NCBI GenBank assembly: GCA_038924245.1
Contig: JBCKVB010000001.1
Span: forward strand, 9,798 to 73,797
Direction: 5' to 3'
Source: Gammaproteobacteria bacterium
Lineage (GTDB): Bacteria; Pseudomonadota; Gammaproteobacteria; SURF-13
DNA: 64,000 nt
The translations under genes were made by a program, and so were the position numbers. Below, piece by piece: positions 3,149-59,022 of this stretch. Each line of letters starts with the position of its first letter. The first letter of the stretch is position 1. Below the pieces are notes generated by a model that saw nothing but the letters and a program-made list of their open reading frames with translations, did no database searches and was not told the origin of the DNA.

Positions 3149-4000
3149 TTATTTCCTGCCTTCACGCGCCCAATAAAACCGGTTGGGCAGCGCCTGGCCT
3201 TTTCCGATATGGTGCGCGTGCTTCAGCGTCTCCCAGGTATAGCGCTGCGCTTCATCCACGGCGCTGAACGGCTCATTACCCTGCGCGAGCAGCCCCGCGA
3301 TGGCCGAGGCCAGCGTGCAGCCGGAGCCGTGATAACTTTCCGGCAAACGCTCCCAGTTAAATGACTGCAGACGGCGCCGATTGCCGTACAGGGTGTTCAC
3401 CACATCAGGCGTGCGCTCATGCGTGCCGGTGATTAGCACGTAGTCGCTGCCGTATTCCATAAGCTGCTGCGCGCAGGCATCCAGACTGTCGGCGGAGGGC
3501 GCGAAGCGGCGCGCCTCCAGACTGTTAGGGGTGAACACCGTGGTGAGCGGCAATAATAAGGAAATAATCACTTCTTGTAACGCGCCATCGGACAGACTCT
3601 GCCCCGATCCCGATGCGAGCACCGGGTCGAGCACCACCGGCACATGGGGATGTTGCGCAAGCAGGGTATGTACCGCCTCGGCGATCAGGTGGCTGCCGAG
3701 CATGCCGATCTTGAACGCCGCCACCGGCATGTCTTCCAGCACCGCGCGCGCCTGTTCGATGACCAGCGCGGTATCCAGTATTTGATAGTCCTTCACCCCG
3801 CGCGTATCCTGCACGGTGATCGCGGTCACCACGGGCGCGGCGATACAGCCCTGGCTGGCCAGGGCCTCGATGTCTGCCTGTATGCCTGCGCCGCCGCTGG
3901 GATCATGGCCGGCGAAAACCATGACTACCGGCACGCCCGCTGTAAGGGTATTTTTCACGGCCCTGCTCATTTGAGAAATTTTATCATGAGTGATGGGCAT
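3149..4000 (-). CDS. thiD: Hydroxymethylpyrimidine/phosphomethylpyrimidine kinase (alternative start at 3970)
   Basis: 283 aa; AGHDPSGGAGIQADIEA...KIGML...HGSGCTLASAIA matches ThiD. Confidence 0.9.
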   Translation of the reverse strand: MPITHDKISQMSRAVKNTLTAGVPVVMVFAGHDPSGGAGIQADIEALASQGCIAAPVVTAITVQDTRGVKDYQILDTALVIEQARAVLEDMPVAAFKIGMLGSHLIAEAVHTLLAQHPHVPVVLDPVLASGSGQSLSDGALQEVIISLLLPLTTVFTPNSLEARRFAPSADSLDACAQQLMEYGSDYVLITGTHERTPDVVNTLYGNRRRLQSFNWERLPESYHGSGCTLASAIAGLLAQGNEPFSAVDEAQRYTWETLKHAHHIGKGQALPNRFYWAREGRK

Positions 4001-4075
4001 TATCGCCGATACATGAGAAAATAGCGCCAGCTACGCGGCGCGCGGCACTGCGCATAACCAGCCTTTGAGTCTGTC

Positions 4076-4240
4076 ATGAAAACTTACATGTGCGTTATCT
4101 GCGGCTTTATTTACGATGAAGCCAAAGGACTGCCGGAAGCCGATATCGCACCGGGAACCAAATGGGACGACCTGCCGCCGAACTGGACCTGTCCGGACTG
4201 CGGGGCGAGTAAAGACGACTTTGAAATGATTGAGGTGTAA
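4076..4240 (+). CDS. Rubredoxin (54 aa)
   Basis: [54 protein letters not shown]; CxxCG...CPxCG rubredoxin motif; below the ORF-track length cutoff. Confidence 0.85.
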
Positions 4241-4272
4241 GCGCGCTGTTACATCGGAAACAGCATGATGAA

Positions 4273-4348
4273 TGGTGGGCGATGCTGGGATTGAACCAGC
4301 GACCCCTACCGTGTGAAGGTAGTGCTCTCCCGCTGAGCTAATCGCCCC
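4273..4348 (-). tRNA. tRNA-Val (anticodon CAC)
   Basis: Reverse complement GGGCGATTAGCTCAGCGGGAGAGCAC...CTACC TTCACAC GGTAG...TCGCCCACCA; cloverleaf with CAC anticodon and CCA end. Confidence 0.85.
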
Positions 4349-27977: not shown

Positions 27978-29207
27978 TTATATGGACTGGCGATGGCCGT
28001 CCGGCTTCCAACTGGGGGCGATGACGTTGGGCATGGCGGAACGCTTGAGCAGGCGCGCTGGAGTCAAGGCAAACTCGCCGTAGCGCCGGTTCACCTGATC
28101 CATGACGCGCTCCACCGCCTGTTGTTTTTGATCCGTGCGGCCGAATAAATCCTGCTGCCCGGCGGGTTGCGGAACGAGCGCGGTGACCTGCACCTGAAAT
28201 ACAGGCTGCTCGCGCCAGACTTGCCGCATCATGTCACAACAAAGCCGGTAAATGGCGCGGCCTTCATTATCGGCTGTGGCCATGGAAAACGTGCCGCCGA
28301 TCCAGCCGTGCGCCACGCGCAGGCCGATGAAAAAACGCCGCGCGACAAGTTCGTGACGGCGCAGGCGCGCGCCCACTTTCTCGCTCATGTGCAGAAAATA
28401 GGTCAGCAGGACTTCCTTGTCGCGCGTGCCGGGCGGCGGCACCTTGCCGTGGCCGAGCGATTTCGGCGCGGCGACATCGGCACACACCTTGTCCGGGTCT
28501 GCGCCGCGGCACATGAGCCAGATGTGCCGCCCCATATTGCCGAAGCGCCGCGCCAGCACGCTCACCGGCAGCCGCGCCACGTCGCCGCAGGTGTGCGCGC
28601 CGTGCGCGGCGAGATAACCCCCGATGCCCTCGGCGACGCCGGACAACACCGTGACCGGCTCGTGTTCCAGACGCGCGCGCATCTCCCACGGAGGAATCAC
28701 CACAAAGCCGTCGGGCTTCATGAGGTTGGCGGCGAACTTGGCGCTGCACTTGTCGCCACTGACCCCCACGGAACAAGACAGGCCGCTCACCGCCCGCACC
28801 TGATCCGCGACCATGCGCCCCATGCGTTCGGGCGTACCGTGCAGGCTTTGGCAGTGCGTCACATCGAGAAACGCCTCGTCCACCGAGAAGACTTCGATGT
28901 CCGGACTCACATCACACAGCGACGCCATGATGGCCGTCGAGACCCGCGCGTAAACTTCAGGCCGCGCGGGGCGTTGGATAACAGCGGGACATAACTTGCG
29001 TGCTTCTTTAAGACGCATGCCGGTATGCACACCGAACGCGCGCGCCTCATAGGAACAGGTGATGATGGTCGTGCCCTGCTCGCCATTGGTCACCGCAACC
29101 GGCTTGCCGCGCAGCTCGGGGAAATCGCGCTGCTCCACCGACGCGAAGAAGGCATTCATGTCCACATGAATGATGGCGCGCGGCCAGAAGCCAGTATGAC
29201 CGTGCAT
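27978..29207 (-). CDS. dinB: Y-family DNA polymerase (DinB/Pol IV-like) with a C-terminal extension
   Basis: 409 aa; IIHVDMNAFFASVEQRDFPELRGKPVAV...SVDEAFLDVT catalytic motifs. Confidence 0.8.
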   Translation of the reverse strand: MHGHTGFWPRAIIHVDMNAFFASVEQRDFPELRGKPVAVTNGEQGTTIITCSYEARAFGVHTGMRLKEARKLCPAVIQRPARPEVYARVSTAIMASLCDVSPDIEVFSVDEAFLDVTHCQSLHGTPERMGRMVADQVRAVSGLSCSVGVSGDKCSAKFAANLMKPDGFVVIPPWEMRARLEHEPVTVLSGVAEGIGGYLAAHGAHTCGDVARLPVSVLARRFGNMGRHIWLMCRGADPDKVCADVAAPKSLGHGKVPPPGTRDKEVLLTYFLHMSEKVGARLRRHELVARRFFIGLRVAHGWIGGTFSMATADNEGRAIYRLCCDMMRQVWREQPVFQVQVTALVPQPAGQQDLFGRTDQKQQAVERVMDQVNRRYGEFALTPARLLKRSAMPNVIAPSWKPDGHRQSI

Positions 29208-32969: not shown

Positions 32970-33078
32970 CGCGGCCTCAAGGCGGCGGATGATAAAATGC
33001 CAAAAGGTAAGACGCGCCCCTTTTTTATTTCTCGAACGCACCTTGTAAATATGTCAATTTGGACATATACTTAGACCA

Positions 33079-33411
33079 ATGAGTAGGCAGAGCAAGCCGT
33101 TGGTGTGGCTGCATGGCGAAGTCAAAACGCCACCTTTTTCCGCCGCCGCAAGAATTGAAGTGGGTGTTTTAATGCGACGCCTTCAAGAGGGTGCCAATAT
33201 ATCGCTGCCGCATGCAAGGCCAATACCCACCATCGGCCGCGGTTGTCATGAATTAAGAATCCCCGACGAAAATCGCACTTGGCGCATTGTGTACTACGTT
33301 GATACGGTAGCCATCGTCATTCTTGATGTGTTTGCCAAAACGACAAGCCAAACGCCTCAGACGGTAATTGACGTTTGCAAGGCGAGACTGAAACGCTATA
33401 AATCAATTTAG
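33079..33411 (+). CDS. higB: HigB-like type II toxin (Gp49/DUF891, RelE/ParE superfamily)
   Basis: 110 aa; KPLVWLHGEVKTPPFSAAARIEVGVLMRRLQEGANISLPHARPIPTIGRGCHELRIPDENRTWRIVYYV...VFAKTTSQTPQ... Confidence 0.75.
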   Translation: MSRQSKPLVWLHGEVKTPPFSAAARIEVGVLMRRLQEGANISLPHARPIPTIGRGCHELRIPDENRTWRIVYYVDTVAIVILDVFAKTTSQTPQTVIDVCKARLKRYKSI

Positions 33412-33427
33412 CATGAGGGTAAATGTC

Positions 33428-33757
33428 ATGAGTACTGACAAATTAAAGCGTCTCCGAGCCGCTGGCTGGAAAGTCGGCAGCGCAGAGGATTTTCTGCAAT
33501 TAAGTGATGAAGAGGCGCGGCTCGTCGCACTCAAGCTCGCGCTGATTAGCGCGGTAAAAAAATCGCGCATCAAACGTAAACTCTCGCAAACTGACCTTGC
33601 GCAACGCATGAAATCGAGTCAATCGCGCATTGCTAAAATTGAAGCGGGCGATTCTTCAGTTTCGCTAGATTTGATCGTACGTGCGCTCATCGCAAGCGGC
33701 GCAACAACGCGCGATATTCAGGCGGCGTTTACGTCAAAAGAACGGATGGCGGCCTAA
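33428..33757 (+). CDS. higA: HigA antitoxin, XRE-family HTH (alternative start at 33413)
   Basis: HTH KLSQTDLAQRMKSSQSRIAKIEAG; directly follows higB with a 2-17 nt spacing. Confidence 0.75.
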   Translation: MSTDKLKRLRAAGWKVGSAEDFLQLSDEEARLVALKLALISAVKKSRIKRKLSQTDLAQRMKSSQSRIAKIEAGDSSVSLDLIVRALIASGATTRDIQAAFTSKERMAA

Positions 33758-33928
33758 CTGTTGCAGCAGCAACGAATACCGCGTTTTGGCCACGCTCGAC
33801 GCGCACCAACACCATGAAGCTCGGCATCATGCGCGAAGCTCGACTTGCATTACGCGACCGTAAGACGTCTTATCAAGGCGGTGGAAGATAAAATGTCATA
33901 AGGCAAGATGTGCCCCCTTTCCCCCACG

Positions 33929-34366
33929 TCAGGTGCGGGCATGGTTTTTCAGCCAGTCCGCAGGGCTTAAGCAAGTGATGGCCGCAGGGGAACGTCCAAG
34001 CATTTCCTTGTCCAGGGTAATCAGGGGAGCGCTCATGCGGCGCGCGAGGGCGACATAAAGGGCATCAGCGCCGCGCAGGAACAAGTTTTGTGCAATGGCC
34101 TCGGCACTCGATGCCAAGTCGGAGTCAACAGGATAAAGCTCAATTTCCAGGAGGGCGCGCATTTCGCGGATGACCCGCGCGGCGTAATCAGGATTGCGCG
34201 TCGGGCGGGAAAATGCGCCTGCTATTTCGACGAACAATGTCGCCGGAGAACATAAAGTGACGGGGTGGGCAACGGTTGCTTCGAGAAAATCCGCGCTGAC
34301 CGAGTGCGCCGGCTCATTTTTCTTGAATGCCGCGACCAGAACGGATGCGTCAATAACAACGCGCAT
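33929..34366 (-). CDS. vapC: PIN-domain toxin VapC (start at MRVVIDASVL)
   Basis: PIN acidic residues (D at VIDASVL, E...D); paired with an upstream overlapping antitoxin. Confidence 0.75.
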   Translation of the reverse strand: MRVVIDASVLVAAFKKNEPAHSVSADFLEATVAHPVTLCSPATLFVEIAGAFSRPTRNPDYAARVIREMRALLEIELYPVDSDLASSAEAIAQNLFLRGADALYVALARRMSAPLITLDKEMLGRSPAAITCLSPADWLKNHART

Positions 34367-34625
34367 CGCGGTCTTCTTGAAGCTGCTGCAAGGCCGATTT
34401 TTTACTTTTCCAGGCAATTGCGTTTTGCTCGGCAAATTTTTCCAGCTTGGTGCGGAACGCCTTGGCGCGTGCCTGTTGCGGCTTGGCTGCAACCCCAGAC
34501 GGCGCGCCTTTTAGTTCCCGCTCCACCGCCGCAGTCACCAACTGCTTCAGCGTCTGACCCCGCATCAAGGCGGCAGCCTTCACCGCACGGAATAGTTCAT
34601 CGGGCATTTCAATAGTGGTTTTCAT
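34350..34625 (-). CDS. vapB: VapB-type antitoxin (start at MKTTIEMPDEL)
   Basis: Small DNA-binding N-terminus MKTTIEMPDELFRAVKAAALMRGQTLKQLV; 17-nt overlap with vapC. Confidence 0.65.
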   Translation of the reverse strand: MKTTIEMPDELFRAVKAAALMRGQTLKQLVTAAVERELKGAPSGVAAKPQQARAKAFRTKLEKFAEQNAIAWKSKKSALQQLQEDRDARCY

Positions 34626-34714
34626 GTCATCTTTCCAACAAACGTTCAGGGTGCACAAGCATCATACCCATAAATATGGGTATGTATCAAGCCGCCAGCC
34701 TGGCCCCTTTTTAC

Positions 34715-34981
34715 TTATCGGTAAATTTCGCGCCGGTTGCCGACCTGCACCACAAGGACGCGCAAAGCGCCATCCTGAATGTCGCAAATCACCCGGCAAT
34801 CGCCCACCCGGTAACGCCAGAAGCCGCCCAGCGGGCCAGTCAATGCTTTGCCTGTGCTGCGTGGGTTTTCCAGCCCGGCGATACGCTCGTCCATGAAATC
34901 AACGATGCGCCGTGCCGTCTGCTTGTCGAGCTTGCGTAGCTGCCCCTTGGCCGTCTCGGCGTAATCAATCGTCCAGGCCAA
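34715..34981 (-). CDS. RelE/ParE-family type II toxin
   Basis: 88 aa; ...GKALTGPLGGFWRYRVGDCRVICDIQDGALRVLVVQVGNRREIY matches the RelE/ParE C-terminal consensus. Confidence 0.8.
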   Translation of the reverse strand: MAWTIDYAETAKGQLRKLDKQTARRIVDFMDERIAGLENPRSTGKALTGPLGGFWRYRVGDCRVICDIQDGALRVLVVQVGNRREIYR

Positions 34982-35192
34982 GGGCTGCTCTCACGTCTGC
35001 GGCGGAATGCACCTGTTCTTGCCCCTTGCGGACACGCTCCAGCACATCAGCAGCAAGGTAGTAGTCCTCCATTTCCTCGATGCCCTGCTCGATGATTTCG
35101 CGCAGGTAGTACGCCTTTGTGCGCCCGGTATGGGATGCGAGGTAGGCTAGCCTTTGCTCGATTTCAGGAGCGAGGCGAATCGAAGTTGCCAT
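34965..35192 (-). CDS. RelB/ParD-like ribbon-helix-helix antitoxin
   Basis: 75 aa; MATSIRLAPEIEQRLAYLASHTGRTKAYYLREIIEQG; overlaps the start of the downstream toxin. Confidence 0.7.
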   Translation of the reverse strand: MATSIRLAPEIEQRLAYLASHTGRTKAYYLREIIEQGIEEMEDYYLAADVLERVRKGQEQVHSAADVRAALGLDD

Positions 35193-35347
35193 GTCAGAGC
35201 CTCCAATTAAATACGTGTATTCACTGTATCACAACACCGTTGTCTTGACCAGCCGGTGCTGCCTCGCGCCGGTTCTATGACCTCGCGCGCTGCACGCTGC
35301 TTTTAGAGCTTGCGGCGCGCCCGCGGCAAACCCACCACCCCGGCGAA

Positions 35348-35614
35348 GTGCTGCGGAAAGACGTGCTACCCGCCTTGGGCATCACCCAAACGGAATTTGC
35401 CAGCCGGCTGGGGGTATCGCGCCTCACCGTGTCGGAACTGCTGCACGAAAAGCGCGCCCTATCCCCGGATATGGCGGTACGCCTGGGCAAGCTGCTCAAC
35501 ACCACCCCGGAAAGCTGGCTGAGAATGCAATACGCCGTGGACTTGTGGGAGTTGACCCACGGCGAGAACGCCAAACGGTATCGAGGCATCAAGCCGCTGG
35601 AAATGGCGGCCTAA
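35348..35614 (+). CDS. HigA-family antitoxin homolog (HTH), orphan and apparently N-terminally truncated
   Basis: VLRKDVLPALGITQTEFASRLGVSRLTVSELLHEKRALSPDMAVRLGKLLNTTPESWLRMQ...; the conserved HPGE lies upstream in frame (…THHPGEV) but no ATG/GTG/TTG start is available there; no adjacent higB. Confidence 0.55.
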   Translation: MLRKDVLPALGITQTEFASRLGVSRLTVSELLHEKRALSPDMAVRLGKLLNTTPESWLRMQYAVDLWELTHGENAKRYRGIKPLEMAA

Positions 35615-35649
35615 GTTTCGCCAAGTGATAAAGGGTTGCGTCCACTTTG
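35506..35649. repeat. Direct repeat A (higA 3' end plus a 35-bp tail); identical copy at 37236-37379
   Basis: About 143 bp identical between the two loci. Confidence 0.8.
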
Positions 35650-35654
35650 TTTAG

Positions 35655-35800
35655 CTCCGCGGTCATCAACAAGCGCGCTGGCGGCATGGGTTTGATCTCC
35701 GGACGCAAGGCGTTCCAGAGGCCGCTGAAGGATGGCGCTGAGTTGCTGCACGCGATAACAGGATGTGTACCTGGAAAAGGTCGTGACCGTCGCGTGACGG
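35655..35800. repeat. Direct repeat B (encodes the C-terminal fragment ...[37 protein letters not shown]... of an unidentified gene); diverged copy at 36990-37135
   Basis: About 85-90% identity between copies; the copy-2 reading frame is intact to a TGA while copy 1 has a 1-bp insertion. Confidence 0.7.
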
Positions 35801-35949
35801 GCGTAGCGCGTGCAGCGTGGATACTTCCAAGGCGGAACACTTTTTCTTAGAATAGCCGTCCAGATGTGCTAAACTTAGCACGTAAGCGGCTGACATATTG
35901 CCGAATGCAGGTCAGATCGTAAACCGATCTCTTAGGAAGGAGCCAAGCT

Positions 35950-36513
35950 ATGCCACAGGTCGCCAGAGCCGAAGCCCTCATGCCCTCACAAATCAAGTTC
36001 CATTTCGATCCAGAAAAAGCCGTAGAGGTGATTCTCTACATCGCTAATCGTGTTGCCGATACGGGCTTTCACCGCATTTCCAAAATTCTTTATTTCTCCG
36101 ACCGGGATCATTTGGCGAAGTACGGGCGCTTCATCTGTGGCGACAGTTATGTCGCCATGAAGCATGGCCCAGTCCCGAGCGGTACTTACGATATCCTCAA
36201 GCACGTACGCGGTGATGGTTTACCGTGCCTTGTTCCCCATGCCGCTGAATCCTTCAGCGTCGAAAACGGCAACAGAGTTATTCCACTCAAAGACGCTGAC
36301 CTCGGCGTGCTGAGCGACTCTGAAAGAGAATGCCTGGATGCGGCGATTACCAAGTATGGAAAAATGCCGTTCAAGAAACTCACCGAACTGAGTCACGACA
36401 GGGCGTGGAATTCGGCCGATGAGAACGAGTTCATCGAGGTAGAACAGATCGTCGCCACGCTACCAGACACCAAGCATTTGCTGGAACATCTCGCCAATCC
36501 CTACCCCGATTAA
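35950..36513 (+). CDS. Panacea (DUF4065) domain protein, PanA/SocA-like candidate antitoxin
   Basis: 187 aa; ISKILYFSDRDHLAKYGRFICGDSYVAMKHGPVPSGTYDILK fits the Panacea-domain core (KLQKLLYFA...G.PL....F.A...GPV....Y); strong GGAAGGAG RBS. Confidence 0.65.
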   Translation: MPQVARAEALMPSQIKFHFDPEKAVEVILYIANRVADTGFHRISKILYFSDRDHLAKYGRFICGDSYVAMKHGPVPSGTYDILKHVRGDGLPCLVPHAAESFSVENGNRVIPLKDADLGVLSDSERECLDAAITKYGKMPFKKLTELSHDRAWNSADENEFIEVEQIVATLPDTKHLLEHLANPYPD

Positions 36514-36519
36514 GCCGAC

Positions 36520-36978
36520 GTGCAAGTCTGGGATCGTCTTCCACCAGAGGAGCAGCGCAAATACATCAGCGCACGTCTGACACCCGGCCGGGTGCTACTG
36601 CTTTACTGCGACTTCACAATACCGCCGAAGGACAAGTTTCTCGTCCTTGCCTGCATCGAACCGGAACCGTTGTTTCTGGTCATTAACTCCCAACTATCCG
36701 AGTTCATACGAAAACGGGAATGGTTGCTTCAATGCCAAGTCAGCATCAAACATGAAGACCATCCATTTCTTAAACACCATTCCTACATAGACTGTACGAG
36801 CGCCCACAAAGTCACATCGCGTGACATCTATGAACAACTCGAAAAGGACATCAAAAAGGTAAAAGACGAAATCAGCAAAGACACCCGCGATCAGATTCGC
36901 GCCGCCGTTAAATTCTCGAAGACACTGCCTGCCAGACACAAATTAGACATCCTGGCTGCGTTAGGTCAAAACACCTGA
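36520..36978 (+). CDS. Hypothetical protein, candidate toxin partner of the Panacea-domain gene (GTG start 6 nt after the upstream stop)
   Basis: 152 aa with no recognisable family; translationally coupled to the Panacea gene; the two-gene cassette is flanked by repeats B/B'. Confidence 0.45.
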
Positions 36979-36989
36979 TGCACAGGCGG

Positions 36990-37135
36990 TGCGCACCGCG
37001 GTCATCAACAAGCGCGCGGACGGTATGGGGTTGATCTCAGGACGCAAGGCGTTCCAGGGGCCGCTGAAGGGTGGCGTTGAACTGCTGCACGCGATACAGG
37101 ATGTGTATTTTGAACAAGCGGTCACCATCGCGTGA
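36990..37135. repeat. Repeat B' (diverged copy of 35655-35800)
   Basis: See repeat B. Confidence 0.7.
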
Positions 37136-37204
37136 TGCATGCAGGGCCGTAGCGCCGAATGGTTAACTTCCACATTCGGCGCAATGCCATTCGGTTATTG
37201 CGCC

Positions 37205-37345
37205 TACCGCGCTGCTGCACGAAAAGCGCGCCCTACCCCGGAAAGCTGGCTGAGAATGCAATACGCCGTGGACTTGTGGGAGTTGACCCACGGCGAGAAC
37301 GCCAAACGGTATCGAGGCATCAAGCCGCTGGAAATGGCGGCCTAA
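37205..37345 (+). pseudogene. higA remnant: 3' portion of a HigA-family antitoxin gene with an internal deletion
   Basis: ...LLHEKRALP|ESWLRMQYAVDLWELTHGENAKRYRGIKPLEMAA is identical to the 3' end of 35348-35614 but lacks about 45 bp between short ccc(c)gg repeats. Confidence 0.65.
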
Positions 37346-37379
37346 GTTTCGCCAAGTGATAAAGGGTTGCGTCCACTTT
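37236..37379. repeat. Repeat A' (identical copy of 35506-35649)
   Basis: See repeat A. Confidence 0.8.
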
Positions 37380-37656
37380 GGTCGAGGCGGTGGCATTCCA
37401 AAGAAAGGGTTGCGTCACCTTTGTGTGTGGGTAGAATCGAGCAGCAAAAGCCGGATATTTTTTTGGCAGGTCTGCTTGACAGATATAAAGTATAGGCCTG
37501 ACCGCGATGATCGGCCTGAGAACAAAATTAAACTACTAAAATATCAGTATTGATTAACATTGTTCCAATTATGAGTGTTGCAAATTGCACTTTATAGTGG
37601 ACCCCGAATTTGAGACAGTAGTTTAAGCTGTAGTCCGATGAAGAAGGAGTCGGGCG

Positions 37657-37950
37657 ATGAGCGGAACGAAGCGAAAAGTATTTGGGGCGGAATTCAAGGC
37701 CAAGGTGGGCCTGGAAGCGATCCATGGGGTCAAGACACTCAACCAGATCGCGCAGGAGCACGGCGTGCATCCGGTGCAGGTAGGCCAGTGGAAGAAAGAG
37801 ATATTGGAACGCGCTGGCAGCCTGTTTGAAGGCAAGCGCGGCCCCAAGGCGGTGAACGAGCACAGCGAGCCAGAGCGGCTCTACGGCGAGATCGGCCGGT
37901 TGAAGATGGAGTTGGACTGGCTCAAAAAAAAGTCCGGGTTGGGCCAGTAG
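37657..37950 (+). CDS. IS3-family transposase OrfA (HTH)
   Basis: 97 aa; KVFGAEFKAKVGLEAIHGVKTLNQIAQEHGVHPVQVGQWKKE...leucine zipper LKMELDWLKK. Confidence 0.85.
   Translation: MSGTKRKVFGAEFKAKVGLEAIHGVKTLNQIAQEHGVHPVQVGQWKKEILERAGSLFEGKRGPKAVNEHSEPERLYGEIGRLKMELDWLKKKSGLGQ
37924..37932 (+). promoter_or_regulatory. Programmed -1 ribosomal frameshift slippery site A AAA AAA AG
   Basis: Run of 8 A's followed by G at the orfA/orfB overlap, as in IS3/IS150-type elements. Confidence 0.7.
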
Positions 37951-37985
37951 CAAGCAGGCGCGCATGGATCGAGCCTGAAGCGGTA

Positions 37986-38867
37986 ATGCCGATGGTACGG
38001 CAGTGTGAGCTGGCGGGTGTCTCCCGCGCCACGGTGTATGCGCAGCGTGTAACCCAGCCGATAATCGAACAGGACTTGGAGTTGCTGCGCCTGATCGACG
38101 AACAGTACACCCGCCGCCCGTTTTACGGCAGCCGGAAAATGGTCTCGTTCCTGAGGGTGCAAGGCCTCCGGGTCAACCGCAAGCGTGTGCAGCGGCTGAT
38201 GCGCATCCTGGGCTTGGCGGGCACGGCGCCGGGGCCGGACACCAGCCGCCCGCACCCGCGGCACAAGGTCTATCCGTACCTGTTGCGCGGCGTGGCGGTG
38301 ACGAGACCGAACCAGGTGTGGAGCACCGACATCACCTACATCCGGCTGACGCATGGCTTCGTCTACTTGGTGGCGGTGATCGACTGGTACAGCAGAAAAG
38401 TATTGAGCTGGAGAATCAGCAACACGCTGGACACGGCGTTCTGTGTAGACTGTTTGGAAGAAGCATTACAGCGGTATGGCAATCCTGAGATATTCAATAC
38501 CGATCAGGGCTGCCAGTTCACCAGTGAGAGCTTCACTGGTGTGCTCAAAGCCAACGGCATCGCCATCAGCATGGACGGACGCGGGCGGGCACTGGACAAC
38601 ATCTTTGTGGAACGGCTATGGCGCAGCGTGAAATACGAAGACGTATATTTGAAAGGCTACGCCAACCCGATGGAATTGATGATCGGACTGACGGAATACT
38701 TTGTGTTTTACAATGGCGAAAGACCGCACCAGTCGTTAGGCAACCGTACACCGGCAGAGGTATACGCGACGGCCAGCGGGGGCGGCGCAAGGATCGTAGA
38801 CAAGTTCAGCAAGAATGGGGCAGCGCCATGCGGCTGCGAGCAGGACGGACAGACCAGCTTAAACTAG
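37986..38867 (+). CDS. IS3-family transposase OrfB (DDE/rve integrase core); expressed as an OrfAB fusion from about 37930
   Basis: 293 aa; ...WSTDITYIRL...VIDWYSRKVLSW...NTDQGCQFTS...FVERLWRSVKYE DDE motif. Confidence 0.85.
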   Translation: MPMVRQCELAGVSRATVYAQRVTQPIIEQDLELLRLIDEQYTRRPFYGSRKMVSFLRVQGLRVNRKRVQRLMRILGLAGTAPGPDTSRPHPRHKVYPYLLRGVAVTRPNQVWSTDITYIRLTHGFVYLVAVIDWYSRKVLSWRISNTLDTAFCVDCLEEALQRYGNPEIFNTDQGCQFTSESFTGVLKANGIAISMDGRGRALDNIFVERLWRSVKYEDVYLKGYANPMELMIGLTEYFVFYNGERPHQSLGNRTPAEVYATASGGGARIVDKFSKNGAAPCGCEQDGQTSLN

Positions 38868-39205
38868 ACTGATTTCTGTCTTGACGGATGGGTCCACTGT
38901 AAGCGGTCCTGCGTCAACTGAATATCTCTTTGCTGGTTCTTCTTGCTGCCACCGCCTAGAAGAATGACCAATGCATTACCCACCTGACCGAAATAAATCC
39001 GGTAGCCCGGGCCAAAATCAATTTTGTATTCGGAGATTCCCTTCGCCAAGTGTTTGGCATTTTAGAAGTTGCCCTGCTCCATCCGATAGAGTCCTGTAGC
39101 CACCTTCGCTGCGGCCACTGGATCAAGCCGACTAAACCAGCGACTGAACGGTGACTTACCGTCCGGCTCCAAGTATTCGCTAACCTGTCGTAGCGTTATG
39201 TCCAT
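38864..39205 (-). pseudogene. HigB-like 'addiction module killer' toxin gene with an in-frame TAA at 39062-39064 and its 3' end replaced by the IS3 terminus
   Basis: MDITLRQVSEYLEPDGKSPFSRWFSRLDPVAAAKVATGLYRMEQGNF*NAKHLAKGISEYKIDFGPGYRIYFGQVGNALVILLGGGSKKNQQRDI fits the family consensus (…GNFGD.K.VG.GV.E.RID.GPGYR.YF…ILLCGGDK..Q..DI). Confidence 0.7.
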
Positions 39206-39347
39206 ATGGTAACTTATAAGTTACTTTTGTCAATACGCGGAAGGGGGATTGATGAATCAGTAGCGTAGCGATACGCGCCATAGACAATCATCGCATCGCC
39301 GAGTGATAACATGCTTTCCGCGCGGCAAGTTGAGGGCCGCCCCATGC

Positions 39348-39752
39348 TCATGCCTGCCTCACCCCTTCCAGAAAATCCTTTAACGATAGCATCCGGACTC
39401 CCCGATAGACGTCCAACCGCAGCATCGCCTGATCCCCTGTTACGATCACGTCCGCCTTTCCGGTAACAGCGCACTCGAGAATCCGGTTGTCTGGCTCATC
39501 GTGCAGTATCTTGAGCCGGCGACGGGGTGTTACGACCTCTGCGAGTTCTGACAGGTATACCGCTGTACGCGCCAGTTGCTCCAGATTGCGGTCAAATTTG
39601 CGCGCCAGGACATTGAGTACTTCGTGGATGATATCCTTGGAAATAGTCAGATGCACATCGCCTTCGATCACCCTGAGGATGGCCGCCTCCGCCCGGCCAC
39701 CCGGGATGGCAAATGCTGAAATGAAAATATTGGTGTCGAAGACCGCCCTCAC
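39348..39752 (-). CDS. PIN-domain toxin (VapC-like)
   Basis: 134 aa; MRAVFDTNIFISAF...ECAVTGKADVIVTGD. Confidence 0.75.
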   Translation of the reverse strand: MRAVFDTNIFISAFAIPGGRAEAAILRVIEGDVHLTISKDIIHEVLNVLARKFDRNLEQLARTAVYLSELAEVVTPRRRLKILHDEPDNRILECAVTGKADVIVTGDQAMLRLDVYRGVRMLSLKDFLEGVRQA

Positions 39753-39997
39753 TTGCGGAGGTAACGCTCCAGGTCCTTCTCTGTAAGAAGGCCCTTTTCC
39801 TTGGCCTTGCGACTCCAGTAGCCCTGAATGCCGCGCAGGTCGGCTTTAAGCCGTGACGCGCGTGCAGCCCGCAGCGCGTCCTGCACCACGGCGCTCAGGG
39901 TTTTGCCCTCAGCGCGAGCAATGGCCTCTGCTTCTTTGGCAAGCTCGGGCGAAAGCGAGATAGTCTTTTTGACGGCGGTTCCCATAGACGGCCTCAC
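39749..39997 (-). CDS. Ribbon-helix-helix (CopG/Arc-type) antitoxin for the PIN toxin (alternative start at 39985)
   Basis: 82 aa; KKTISLSPELAKEAEAIARAEGKTLSAVVQDALR; ATGA start/stop overlap with the PIN toxin gene. Confidence 0.65.
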   Translation of the reverse strand: MRPSMGTAVKKTISLSPELAKEAEAIARAEGKTLSAVVQDALRAARASRLKADLRGIQGYWSRKAKEKGLLTEKDLERYLRK

Positions 39998-40056
39998 ATC
40001 AGATAGTATGAATAAATCATACCAGCATGGGTTGGCCTGTCAAGCAGACACCAAGA

Positions 40057-40149
40057 TGGCGGAGAGGGTGGGATTCGAACCCACGTGGCGGGATGAACCG
40101 CCCATCCGATTTCGAGTCGGCGCCGTTATGACCGCTTCGGTACCTCTCC
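40057..40149 (-). tRNA. tRNA-Ser (anticodon CGA)
   Basis: Reverse complement GGAGAGGTACCGAAGCGGTCATAACGGCGCCGACTCGAAATCGGATGGGCGGTTCATCCCGCCACGTGGGTTCGAATCCCACCCTCTCCGCCA; long variable arm. Confidence 0.85.
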
Positions 40150-40218
40150 GGGGAAATTTTGACAACGCCGTGGCGGTGCGCAACGGCTATTTTAACTTAA
40201 ATAAGGCGACCCGTCCTT

Positions 40219-52342: not shown

Positions 52343-53317
52343 TCAGGGCTGCCGTTTTGCCTCTTCCACACCATCCATGAGCTTATTAGTTGTGGCGTCC
52401 ACGCAATAGTTCAATACCTTGGCCGTAATATTTGCATCCAGGCTGTCAAACCACGTCACGCCCGGCTCCGTACGCAGCCAGGTAAGCTGGCGCTTGGCCA
52501 ATTGGCGCGTGGCTATAATAGCGCGCTTTGTCATCTCCTCGCAATTGAACTCCCCGTGCAGATGCCGCCAAATCTGGCGGTAGCCGACCGCGCGCAGGGC
52601 CGGCGTGTTCAGGCTCAAATCCCCACGCTGGTCAAGGGCTTTCACCTCTTCGATGAAACCGCGCTGTAACATGTCGTGGAACCGCGCGCCGATGCGTTCG
52701 TGCAGCGCGGCGCGTTCCACGGGCATGAGGGCGATCTTGCCGATACGGTACGGCAACGGCGTGCCCGGAGCGGAGCAGTGAAGTTCGCTCATCGGCCCGC
52801 TGTGCAGCTCACACACCTCCAGCGCGCGCTGAATGCGTTGCGCGTCGTTGGGATGAATGCGCGCAGCGGACGCGGGATCCAGCCGCGCCAAGCGCGCGTG
52901 CAGCGCCGCCCAGCCGTGCCGCTCCGCTTCGGCGGCGAGGCGCGCGCGCAGCGCCGGGTCGGCGCCGGGCAACTCCGAAAGACCGTATTCGAGTGCGCGG
53001 AAGTACAGCATAGTGCCGCCCACCAGCAGGGGAATGCGCCCGCGCCGCGTAATTTCGCTCATCTCGCGCAACGCATCGGCGCAAAATTGCGCCGCCGAAT
53101 AGGGCTCGGCCGGGTCGCGGATATCAATCAAACGGTGCGGCGCGCGCGCCAGCACCTCCGGCGGCGGTTTCGCCGTGCCGATGTCCATGCCGCGGTACAC
53201 CATGCCGGAGTCCACGCTGATGATGTCGCACGGCAGCCGCCCGGCCAGACGCAGCGCGAGATCGGTCTTGCCGGAGGCGGTCGGGCCCATCAGAAAGATG
53301 GTAGGGGGGAGGGGCAT
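52343..53317 (-). CDS. miaA: tRNA dimethylallyltransferase
   Basis: 324 aa; P-loop GPTASGKT. Confidence 0.9.
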
Positions 53318-53399
53318 TTTCTTAAGGGGCTAGGGATTAGGGGCTAGGGGCTGGGGGCTCGCCTCTCCCTGGCCCCTAGTCCCCAGCCCCCACAGTTAA

Positions 53400-54780
53400 T
53401 CACCTTCCTCTCAAAAACAGTTTGTCCAGCATCGTCATATCGAGTTGCACCCAGGTGGGGCGGCCGTGATTGCACTGGTTGCTGCGCTCGGTGCGTTCCA
53501 TGTCGCGCAGCAAGGCGTTCATCTCTACGAGGTTGAGTTTACGCCGCGCGCGCACGGCGGCGTGACAGGCCATTCCGGCCAGGACCTGGTTCATCTGTTC
53601 GGCCATGCGCGCTATCTTGCGCCGGTGTTCCGTGCAGGGTGTCATACGCGCCGATCTGCTCGCGCACCTGGAGCGGCATGGCGTGCTGTGTGTATGGTGC
53701 GGCAGGGTGCGCTGATGTCACCGGCGCATCCATCCACCGCGGCCCGGCTGCGGATGCGGTCTGTCCCGCCCGCGTAGCAGCCAAGGCCTGTTGCAACGCG
53801 CGATACAGAAAATCATGCACCAGGCGGCCTTCACGGAAACGCACTTCATGTTTGGCCGGATGCACGTTCACGTCCACCTCGGCGGGCGGCAGGGTGAAGT
53901 GCAACACATAGGCCGGATGACGCCCGTGATACAGCGCGTCTTGATAGGCCTGACGCAGCGCGTGGCTGACCAGCTTGTCGCGGATCAGGCGTCCGTTGAG
54001 GTAAAAATATTGCATGTCCGGCTGGCTGCGCGAGAAGGTGGGCAGACTGCTCCAGCCGCTCACGCGCAACGGGCCGGCCTCAAATTCCAGCGCCAGCGCT
54101 TCGGCCATGAAATTTTCTCCGCACAGCGCGGCCACGCGCCGTTCGCGGCCCTCCTCGCCGCGCAGCGTGAACACCGTGCGCTCATGATGGCGCAGCGTGA
54201 ATCCCACCTCCGCGCGCGACAAGGCCAGGCGCTTTACCACCTCTTGCAGGTGATTGAACTCGGTCTGTTCGCTCTTGAGGAATTTGCGCCGCGCGGGGAC
54301 GCTATGAAACAGGTCGCGCACCTCCACCGTGGTGCCGACGGGATGCGGCGCGGGCCGCGGCGAGTCCGTGTCCTCGCCCGTGATGAGCCAGCCGTTGGCG
54401 TCTTGCGCGGTGCGCGAGGCAATGCTGAGGCGCGCCACGGAGCGGATGCTGGGCAGCGCCTCGCCGCGAAAACCCAGGCTGCTTACCTGCTCCAGATCGC
54501 GCAGACTGTGTATCTTGCTGGTGGCGTGATGGCTCAGGGCCAGCGCCAGATCGTCCTTGCGGATGCCGCAACCGTCATCGCGCACGCGCATCAGGCGTAT
54601 GCCGCCCTGCTCCACTTCGATTTCGATCTGGCGCGCGCCCGCGTCCAGGCTGTTTTCCAGCAGTTCCTTGATGACCGAGGCCGGGCGCTCAACCACCTCG
54701 CTGGCGGCGATCTGGCTTATGAGTACATCAGGAAGGCGCTGGATGCGCCGCACTTCTGACAACGGGAACTCCTCAAGCAA
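53400..54780 (-). pseudogene. mutL: DNA mismatch repair protein MutL with an apparent internal deletion in the C-terminal domain plus a frameshift
   Basis: N-terminal GHKL ATPase intact (…[11 protein letters not shown]…GFRGEAL…[10 protein letters not shown]…). After a short linker the frame changes near 53600-53650 and only the last ~80 aa follow (…ACHAAVRA…[28 protein letters not shown]…LDKLFLRGR). The DQHA(x)2E(x)4E endonuclease motif region is absent in all frames; total about 460 codons. Confidence 0.7.
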
Positions 54781-54884: not shown

Positions 54885-56108
54885 CTACAAACGTCGTGCG
54901 GCGGAAGTCTGGCTGTCGCTGCGCGCCACGGTGCGTTTGCGCTGAGCTTCCTCGGCGAGCACGGTACCGGGCGGGGCCTTGCGGGTGAAATACTCGCGCA
55001 CGCCATTCATGATGGCCCGCGCCAGTTTTTCCTGATGGCGCACGTCGCGTAGTTTTTGCTCTTCATGCGGATTGGAGATAAACGCGGTCTCGACCAGAAT
55101 GGAAGGAACATCCGGCGACTTCAGCACCATGAATCCGGCCTGCTGCACTTGCGACTTGTGCAAATCGCCCACACCACCCAACTCTTTCAATATATTGGAC
55201 GCCACGTCGTGGCTGGCTTCTATCGTCGCGGTCTGTGACAGGTCCAGCAGCACCGATGCGAGCAGATCATCCTTGTCACCGAGGCTCACGCCGCCCACCA
55301 GGTCGGCGGCGTTCTCGCGCTCCGCGAGCCAGCGCGCGGCCTCGCTGGTGGCGCCGCGTTCGGACAGGGTAAACACCGAGGAGCCGCGCGCTTCCGGCCT
55401 TAGAAAGGCATCGGCGTGTATGGATACGAACAGGTCGGCCTTGTGTTCGCGCGCCCTGTTGATGCGTCCGCGCAGACTCACGTAATAATCGCCGTCACGC
55501 GTCAGCACGGCCTTCATGCCGCGCTCCTTGTTGATAAGCGCGGCGAGTTTGCGCGCAATGGCGAGCGTGATGTCTTTTTCATTGGTGCCGCGCCTGCCGC
55601 GCGCGCCCGGGTCTTCGCCGCCGTGACCGGCGTCCACCGCCACCACCACATCGCGCAATTGAGTACCCGGCTTAGCCGCGCGCGGCACTGGCGGCTGCTC
55701 TAAAACAGACCCGGTCTTTGCCGTCACGGTGGGATACAAATCCACCACCAAACGGTGGCCGTATTGTTCGTAGGGTTTGAGGGTAAAGCTTTTGGTCTGC
55801 ACACCTTCCTTCAATTGCAGCAGAATGGTGGCGCCCTCCAAGACGGGCAGGCTTTCAAGTTTGGTCAGCAGGCTCTTGCGGCTGTCGAAGGCAGGCAACG
55901 GGCTCAAAAGCCGCGCCTCGCTGATTTTAATTTCAATCCACCCCCCGGTCAGCTCGGTGAGCTGATACTGCGCGGGAGCGCTCAAATCCAGCACCAGGCG
56001 GGTATTATCGGGAGCGGGCCAGATACGCACGCCCTGAATATCCACCGGCGCGGCGGCAAGCGGTGCCACCATCAGTACCAACATCAGCAATACGCCAAGA
56101 CGTCTCAT
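54885..56108 (-). CDS. amiB: N-acetylmuramoyl-L-alanine amidase (AMIN domain + Amidase_3)
   Basis: 407 aa; signal peptide, N-terminal AMIN domain, C-terminal zinc amidase (…VVAVDAGHGGEDPGA…). Confidence 0.85.
   Translation of the reverse strand: MRRLGVLLMLVLMVAPLAAAPVDIQGVRIWPAPDNTRLVLDLSAPAQYQLTELTGGWIEIKISEARLLSPLPAFDSRKSLLTKLESLPVLEGATILLQLKEGVQTKSFTLKPYEQYGHRLVVDLYPTVTAKTGSVLEQPPVPRAAKPGTQLRDVVVAVDAGHGGEDPGARGRRGTNEKDITLAIARKLAALINKERGMKAVLTRDGDYYVSLRGRINRAREHKADLFVSIHADAFLRPEARGSSVFTLSERGATSEAARWLAERENAADLVGGVSLGDKDDLLASVLLDLSQTATIEASHDVASNILKELGGVGDLHKSQVQQAGFMVLKSPDVPSILVETAFISNPHEEQKLRDVRHQEKLARAIMNGVREYFTRKAPPGTVLAEEAQRKRTVARSDSQTSAARRL

Positions 56109-58505: not shown

Positions 58506-59022
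<517 letters not shown>

Follow-up and report, generated by a model that had tools for sequence, protein, structure and literature searches.

The mutL gene of the bacterium studied here is in our judgement a true pseudogene, made by one deletion and representing a genuine loss-of-function allele; we put the probability of this reading at about 0.8. The gene lies in a 64,000-nt stretch of DNA from a Gammaproteobacteria bacterium (SURF-13; GCA_038924245.1, JBCKVB010000001.1, positions 9,798 to 73,797 of the forward strand), which as a whole is called the window in what follows. To judge from its reading frames, the locus should be unable to encode a functional MutL, because the gene is split in two frames and its endonuclease and dimerisation core is gone. 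The features at the locus are listed here with window coordinates; L081 and L083 are loci of close relatives that are presented further below.

53613..54762, minus strand: mutL 5' portion, with the TTG start and native codons 1-383 (GHKL ATPase, transducer and most of the linker).
53606..53612, minus strand: deletion junction, with the single GCGCGCA copy left (TGCGCGC on the plus strand), located by MAFFT alignment against L081 and L083.
53539..53605, minus strand: out-of-frame tail of the truncated product, 22 residues and then a stop, from translation; the recorded product P0001 ends identically.
53400..53612, minus strand: mutL 3' remnant, with the last 70 codons and the stop, in a frame disconnected from the start.
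54885..56108, minus strand: amiB, the intact upstream neighbour and a synteny anchor (Pfam Amidase_3 and AMIN).
52343..53317, minus strand: miaA, the intact downstream neighbour and a synteny anchor (Pfam IPPT across the full profile).

According to the ORF list and a three-frame translation, the long ORF at 53539-54780 on the minus strand encodes 413 aa from its first TTG, or 407 aa from the TTG at 54762, the latter being the start in the product recorded for the source contig (P0001, 407 aa). A second ORF of 81 aa, at 53400-53645 on the same strand, is read in a different frame, and only its last 70 residues are native MutL. These two ORFs stand in place of one continuous frame of about 585-605 codons, which is absent at the locus. 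When the intact 587-aa MutL of a relative (P0121) was used as a tblastn query, residues 1-392 matched 54762-53587 in frame -2, and residues 518-587 matched 53612-53403 in frame -3 with 98.6% identity. The original prediction, made from the letters of this DNA, had seen a change of frame near 53600-53650, and the junction at 53606-53612 falls within that interval. Pfam analysis of the long ORF returned HATPase_c_3 (E=1.9e-11) and DNA_mis_repair (E=1.6e-39, profile positions 2-118 of 119), in agreement with the earlier claim of an intact N-terminal ATPase domain, and MutL_C was not found in this ORF. The 81-aa ORF scored 15.9 bits against Pfam MutL_C (PF08676), below the cut-off of 25 bits, and matched profile positions 117-142 of 142 only; the intact P0121 scored 156 bits (E=5e-46, positions 1-142). 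The split frames and this residual match bear out the proposed inactivation of mutL. A regular-expression search of the same ORF identified ACH (ACR-like), CNHGRP and FLR, so the ACR-like, CNHGRP and FxR motifs that had been said to survive do survive. The estimate of about 80 remaining C-terminal residues was right insofar as an 81-aa ORF exists, but native MutL accounts for the last 70 alone. Finally, the conserved block nnr-tsaE-amiB-mutL-miaA-hfq-hflXKC, in which the gene was said to sit, was recovered by Pfam as the gene order nnr-tsaE-amiB-mutL-miaA-hfq-hflX-hflK-hflC.

The lesion itself was defined by aligning the window mutL with mutL of close relatives, a check that the original prediction had called for. 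The reference relatives are about 95-97% identical to the window in DNA, and each MAFFT alignment contained one gap: a single block of 389 nt is missing relative to L081, and a single block of 401 nt relative to L083, whose mutL is intact with 587 codons. The 12-nt difference between the two lengths is an in-frame linker indel inside the deleted block, the insert being present in L083 and L087. Outside the gap, the window mutL shares 96.8% nucleotide identity with L083 mutL and has no premature stop. In L083 mutL the heptamer GCGCGCA occurs at nt 1151 and nt 1552, exactly at both ends of the missing block. Relatives have two copies of it, 389 or 401 nt apart, while the window has one, and the window junction sequence is GATAGCGCGCATGGCC. 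Junction microhomology of at least 7 nt is found in only 0.14% of the possible 50-1500-nt deletions of this gene. From this repeat signature we infer a slipped-strand or microhomology-mediated deletion between the two GCGCGCA copies. Its length would have been 401 nt in an ancestor with the 12-nt linker insert of the L083/L087 type, and 389 nt in one without it; being of the form 3n+2 in either case, it is expected to shift the reading frame at the junction. Since 389 and 401 are both 3n+2, the gap and the frame change are a single mutation. We therefore dropped the idea that a deletion and a frameshift had arisen separately, because one 3n+2 deletion between 7-nt repeats gives both.

The deleted block corresponds to codons 384-517 of the 587-codon L083 reference, the lost residues ending in ITHGTS. 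The segment had been put at about 100 residues missing in all frames; it is indeed absent throughout the window, but its size is about 130-134 residues. The deletion took the last part of the linker and roughly two thirds of the C-terminal domain, including the endonuclease motif, QPLLLP and 116 of the 142 MutL_C positions. The endonuclease motif (12 residues) sits inside the deleted segment in both P0121 and L083. A regular-expression search for the metal-site motif D[QM]HA(x)2E(x)4E gave no match in any of the six frames of the whole 64-kb window, as had been predicted for DQHA(x)2E(x)4E, and neither blastn nor tblastn placed the missing mutL segment anywhere in the window. Taken together, these searches ruled out a relocation of the segment elsewhere in the window; an intact second mutL copy outside this one window is possible. 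In P0121, the C-terminal domain (residues 390-587) aligns over its whole length with the solved structures of Neisseria gonorrhoeae MutL (3ncv) and Bacillus subtilis MutL (3gab/3kdg/3kdk), and it carries the endonuclease motif set, whereas the window keeps only the last 70 residues of the domain, out of frame.

The C-terminal domain of MutL provides dimerisation and a metal-dependent nicking site, and it is required for incision. The predicted product of the window gene would consist of 383-384 native residues, with the ATPase and transducer domains and most of the linker, followed by 22 wrong residues. Such a product would be without the dimerisation domain, the metal-binding endonuclease site and QPLLLP, which we take to be the beta-clamp-binding motif. 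In mismatch repair of the MutH-less endonuclease type, loss of the C-terminal domain should abolish strand incision, and we infer that the cell should then be a mutator, with more transitions, small indels and homeologous recombination.

Could the gene have been remodelled instead of killed, with the N-terminal protein, or the two fragments together, still functional? The N-terminal ATPase ORF is open for 407 codons, which would suit this idea, yet we consider it barely credible. The C-terminal domain is, by established knowledge of MutL, needed for dimerisation and incision, and the 3n+2 deletion goes beyond the linker to take most of that domain together with the endonuclease motif. In addition, a G21S change strikes the conserved ATP-site motif of the part that remains. 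Relatives do not consistently keep any fragment either, L087 being without the N-terminal part and L082 without the whole gene. A precedent for remodelling is offered by Sodalis-allied louse symbionts, whose in-frame mutL linker deletions were first mistaken for inactivation and are judged compatible with function (PMC11137140). The window deletion differs from these in being out of frame and in taking away the catalytic and dimerisation core. We accordingly rejected a harmless linker deletion of that type, the 389/401 nt being 3n+2 and reaching into MutL_C. For annotation, the reading of the locus as a dead gene means that it should be labelled a pseudogene, and not a 407-aa "MutL".

Loss of mutL appears to recur in the lineage. 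A protein search found full-length relatives of 585-604 aa with 76-83% identity, plus one cluster at about 91%, and a protein scan of genome contigs with the MutL N-terminal part gave relatives with at most 63% identity among the matches listed. Seven related loci, L081-L087, come from NCBI assemblies GCA_0389237xx-0389246xx (prefixes JBCKU*/JBCKV*), which probably all belong to a single submission batch. In the flanking genes common to all, they diverge from the window by 2.7-4.5%, and the eight genomes, window included, are 2.4-5.4% apart. The state of mutL in each is as follows, codons being numbered relative to L083.

L083: intact, 587 codons.
L084 and L085: 1-nt deletion at codon 120.
L081 and L086: two 1-nt deletions, one at codon 35 and the other, shared with L084/L085, at codon 120.
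L082: near-complete deletion of 1717 nt, spanning codon 15 to the stop region; site at L082 4884-4930.
L087: 5' deletion of 769 nt that begins 32 nt ahead of the start codon and reaches codon 246, and CAA>TAA at codon 573 (Q573stop); site at L087 840-870.
Window: 389/401-nt deletion, codons 384-517.

The gene is thus broken in six of the seven relatives by at least three independent lesions, or, with the window, in seven of eight genomes by at least four events. The neighbouring genes nnr, tsaE, amiB, miaA, hfq, hflX, hflK and hflC, the DUF2065 gene, hisZ and purA have normal length in all relatives except at contig ends; the AmiB orthologues, for instance, have 406-408 aa in L081-L086. Exact-protein look-ups of the window MutL fragment, MiaA and AmiB returned no recorded match. 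Those of PurA and TsaE led to no further mutL locus, one contig stopping before mutL and the other being that of L085. A metagenome contig scan with a 23-mer common to the intact and deleted alleles found no mutL, and its one match was a chance match in a LolC/E-like permease gene. Because closely related genomes lost mutL independently, its loss appears to be tolerated or favoured in the lineage.

The same comparison bears on whether the deletion could be an artefact of assembly or consensus, the gene being intact in the cells and 389-401 nt having been dropped in the assembly. The contig does belong to a draft assembly and was judged from its assembled sequence. Against this, the 7-nt junction repeat is far below any assembler k-mer, so a collapse at the repeat is not expected, and the remainder of the window is free of broken genes. 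About 40 other large window ORFs have full-length Pfam matches, which indicates that the assembly is not riddled with frameshifts. Furthermore, mutL carries structurally different lesions in at least five other assemblies of close relatives, where about 10 kb of adjoining genes show none, and constraint is relaxed on lesion-bearing branches, as detailed next. We therefore regard an artefact as very unlikely.

Selection on a real but broken gene was assessed from the codon changes. Those private to the window mutL comprise 9 nonsynonymous to 8 synonymous changes, the corresponding figures for the intact L083 being 3 and 12. When pooled, the lesion-bearing branches show a nonsynonymous:synonymous ratio of 18:10, versus 15:36 for intact and stem branches (Fisher p=0.004). 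Constraint on mutL is relaxed on the lesion-bearing branches, that of the window included. The window-private nonsynonymous changes include R78H and the above-mentioned G21S, which falls in the motif AAGEVV at a position occupied by G in 117 of 118 homologues. The N-terminal domain of the window deviates at three highly conserved columns (control mean 0.98); an excess at conserved columns was discarded as a separate argument, since it is not significant alone, at least three deviations being present in 15 of 118 intact homologues. In the group with the codon-120 frameshift (L081, L084, L085 and L086), the variable mutL codons amount to 9 nonsynonymous to 2 synonymous, among them an E>G change within the endonuclease motif of L085. 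Pairwise dN/dS of mutL is 0.15-0.24 (0.20 for the window versus L083), similar to amiB, miaA, tsaE and hflX; for miaA, the comparisons of the window with its relatives gave 0.12-0.33. The likeness of mutL to its neighbours in this respect implies purifying selection for most of the history of the clade, and young lesions.

These data also speak to a different possibility, namely a mixed natural population: the deletion allele would exist in some cells, others would have intact mutL, and the assembler would have taken the deletion path. The source is apparently a metagenome-assembled genome, since proteins almost identical to its own bear the name 'MAG: Gammaproteobacteria bacterium'. What looks like a single batch of assemblies carries differing mutL alleles, the intact one of L083 among them, so the communities sampled do contain several alleles of this gene. 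However, the relatives with other alleles are 2.7-4.5% away from the window in the flanking genes and thus represent distinct lineages, not variants of one strain, and the nonsynonymous excess among the window-private mutL changes suggests that its lineage has carried the allele for a while. A mixture of this kind seems unlikely to us, though less so than an artefact, and a deletion allele belonging to the window lineage itself remains the preferred reading.

If mismatch repair has been lost, a trace might be expected in the mutation spectrum. Across the whole shared region, the segregating sites of the codon-120 group show 41 transitions to 5 transversions, compared with 223:75 among older fixed differences (p=0.04); set against all older differences, the same 41:5 gives p=0.015. 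The difference points modestly towards the transition bias that a lack of mismatch repair should produce. No such excess is seen among the private substitutions of the window lineage (110 transitions to 51 transversions). As there is also no other broken gene among those examined in the window, these figures do not demonstrate a long mutator history for the window genome. The gene of DinB (Pol IV), an error-prone polymerase, is intact at window 27978-29207, which is relevant only to a study of the mutation spectrum of the lineage.

Natural mutators that arose by inactivation of mutL or mutS are known in Pseudomonas aeruginosa from cystic-fibrosis lungs and in natural isolates of Escherichia coli and Salmonella, and short-repeat deletions, frameshifts and nonsense codons in mutL or mutS are the textbook route to them. 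The lineage described here resembles these cases in that an otherwise conserved mismatch-repair gene has been hit, within one species-level group, by repeated independent deletions at short repeats, by 1-nt frameshifts and by nonsense codons. It is unlike them in being uncultured, apparently environmental and known from draft assemblies alone, and in that the broken alleles are the majority (7/8) and not a minority. Vibrio cholerae hypermutators are reported to occur in patients (bioRxiv 10.1101/2020.10.11.333682). The coexistence of broken and intact alleles among close relatives is like the starting state of a further model. This is the loss-and-reacquisition model for mismatch-repair genes, reportedly set out by Denamur and colleagues in Cell in 2000. 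At variance with that model, the intact L083 allele shows no sign of re-import, its dS to the window being 0.079 versus 0.04-0.10 in the flanking genes. Lineages without MutS/MutL are also known, as are endosymbionts that erode their repair genes. As in host-restricted endosymbionts, mutL is here a recurrent target of deletion across related lineages; unlike the genomes of eroding endosymbionts, the window has about 60% GC and all its other examined genes are intact. The loss of mutL in the window thus adds one more case to a familiar class of events. It is the frequency of independent knock-outs in a high-GC, otherwise uneroded and apparently environmental lineage that is unusual.

Several other variable features were noted near the locus and in the rest of the window. 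The spacer between mutL and miaA (window 53322-53392) contains a hairpin of tandem heptamers, (AGGGGCT)x5 facing its complement, with a predicted RNA fold of -50 kcal/mol (z=-3.7), and this GGGGCT-type hairpin occurs once in the window. In the relatives, the spacer holds a hairpin of unrelated heptamers, (GTAGYAA)n...(CTTGWTA)n, variable in copy number and with a conserved core (L081 5574-5730, L083 4055-4155, L085 7210-7352). The spacer hairpin may be a terminator or a swapped small repeat cassette. In L084, an IS element consisting of a 100-aa ORF and an rve transposase lies between the broken mutL and miaA (3222-4348), another sign of structural instability at the mutL locus in the clade. 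The 3' end of miaA varies as well: its product ends in AKRQP in the window and L082, and in VDATN, about 14 codons shorter, in the other relatives, which suggests an indel or a replacement at the miaA-hfq boundary. Between msrA and nnr, a gene for a BrnT-like toxin and a small gene paired with it are found at window 58512-59022 and at L085 1129-1639, with products 97-99% identical between the two. The pair is also present in L086 and is absent at the same spot in L082 (1133-1311), so that it is a presence/absence polymorphism inside the clade. Farther away, the window stretch at about 33000-40200 has a GC content of 0.53-0.58, against about 0.61 elsewhere, and contains short ORFs; it looks like a small integrated island. 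The following genes lie in it or next to it.

33929-34492: PIN-domain toxin, in the low-GC stretch.
35950-36513: SocA/Panacea antitoxin-like gene, in the low-GC stretch.
37986-38867: IS-type rve transposase, in the low-GC stretch.
40057-40149: tRNA-Ser(CGA), adjoining the end of the low-GC stretch.

Taken by itself, one mutL pseudogene is a mutator allele of the ordinary sort, and it is the surrounding pattern of repeated loss that could matter. It is tempting to speculate that the species or species complex is largely without MutL-dependent mismatch repair, with repeated independent knock-outs and intact alleles the exception, although on present evidence we consider this doubtful. If it were true, this would be a free-living natural population with hypermutators as its norm and not as a transient minority. 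If read data and whole-genome comparisons bear out the pattern of repeated loss, the clade would be a natural system in which to ask whether, away from the clinic and the laboratory, selection favours doing without mismatch repair, merely tolerates it, or lets repair be lost and regained in cycles. It could also show the pace of change in a repair-deficient lineage, and whether an intact mutL allele spreads by recombination.
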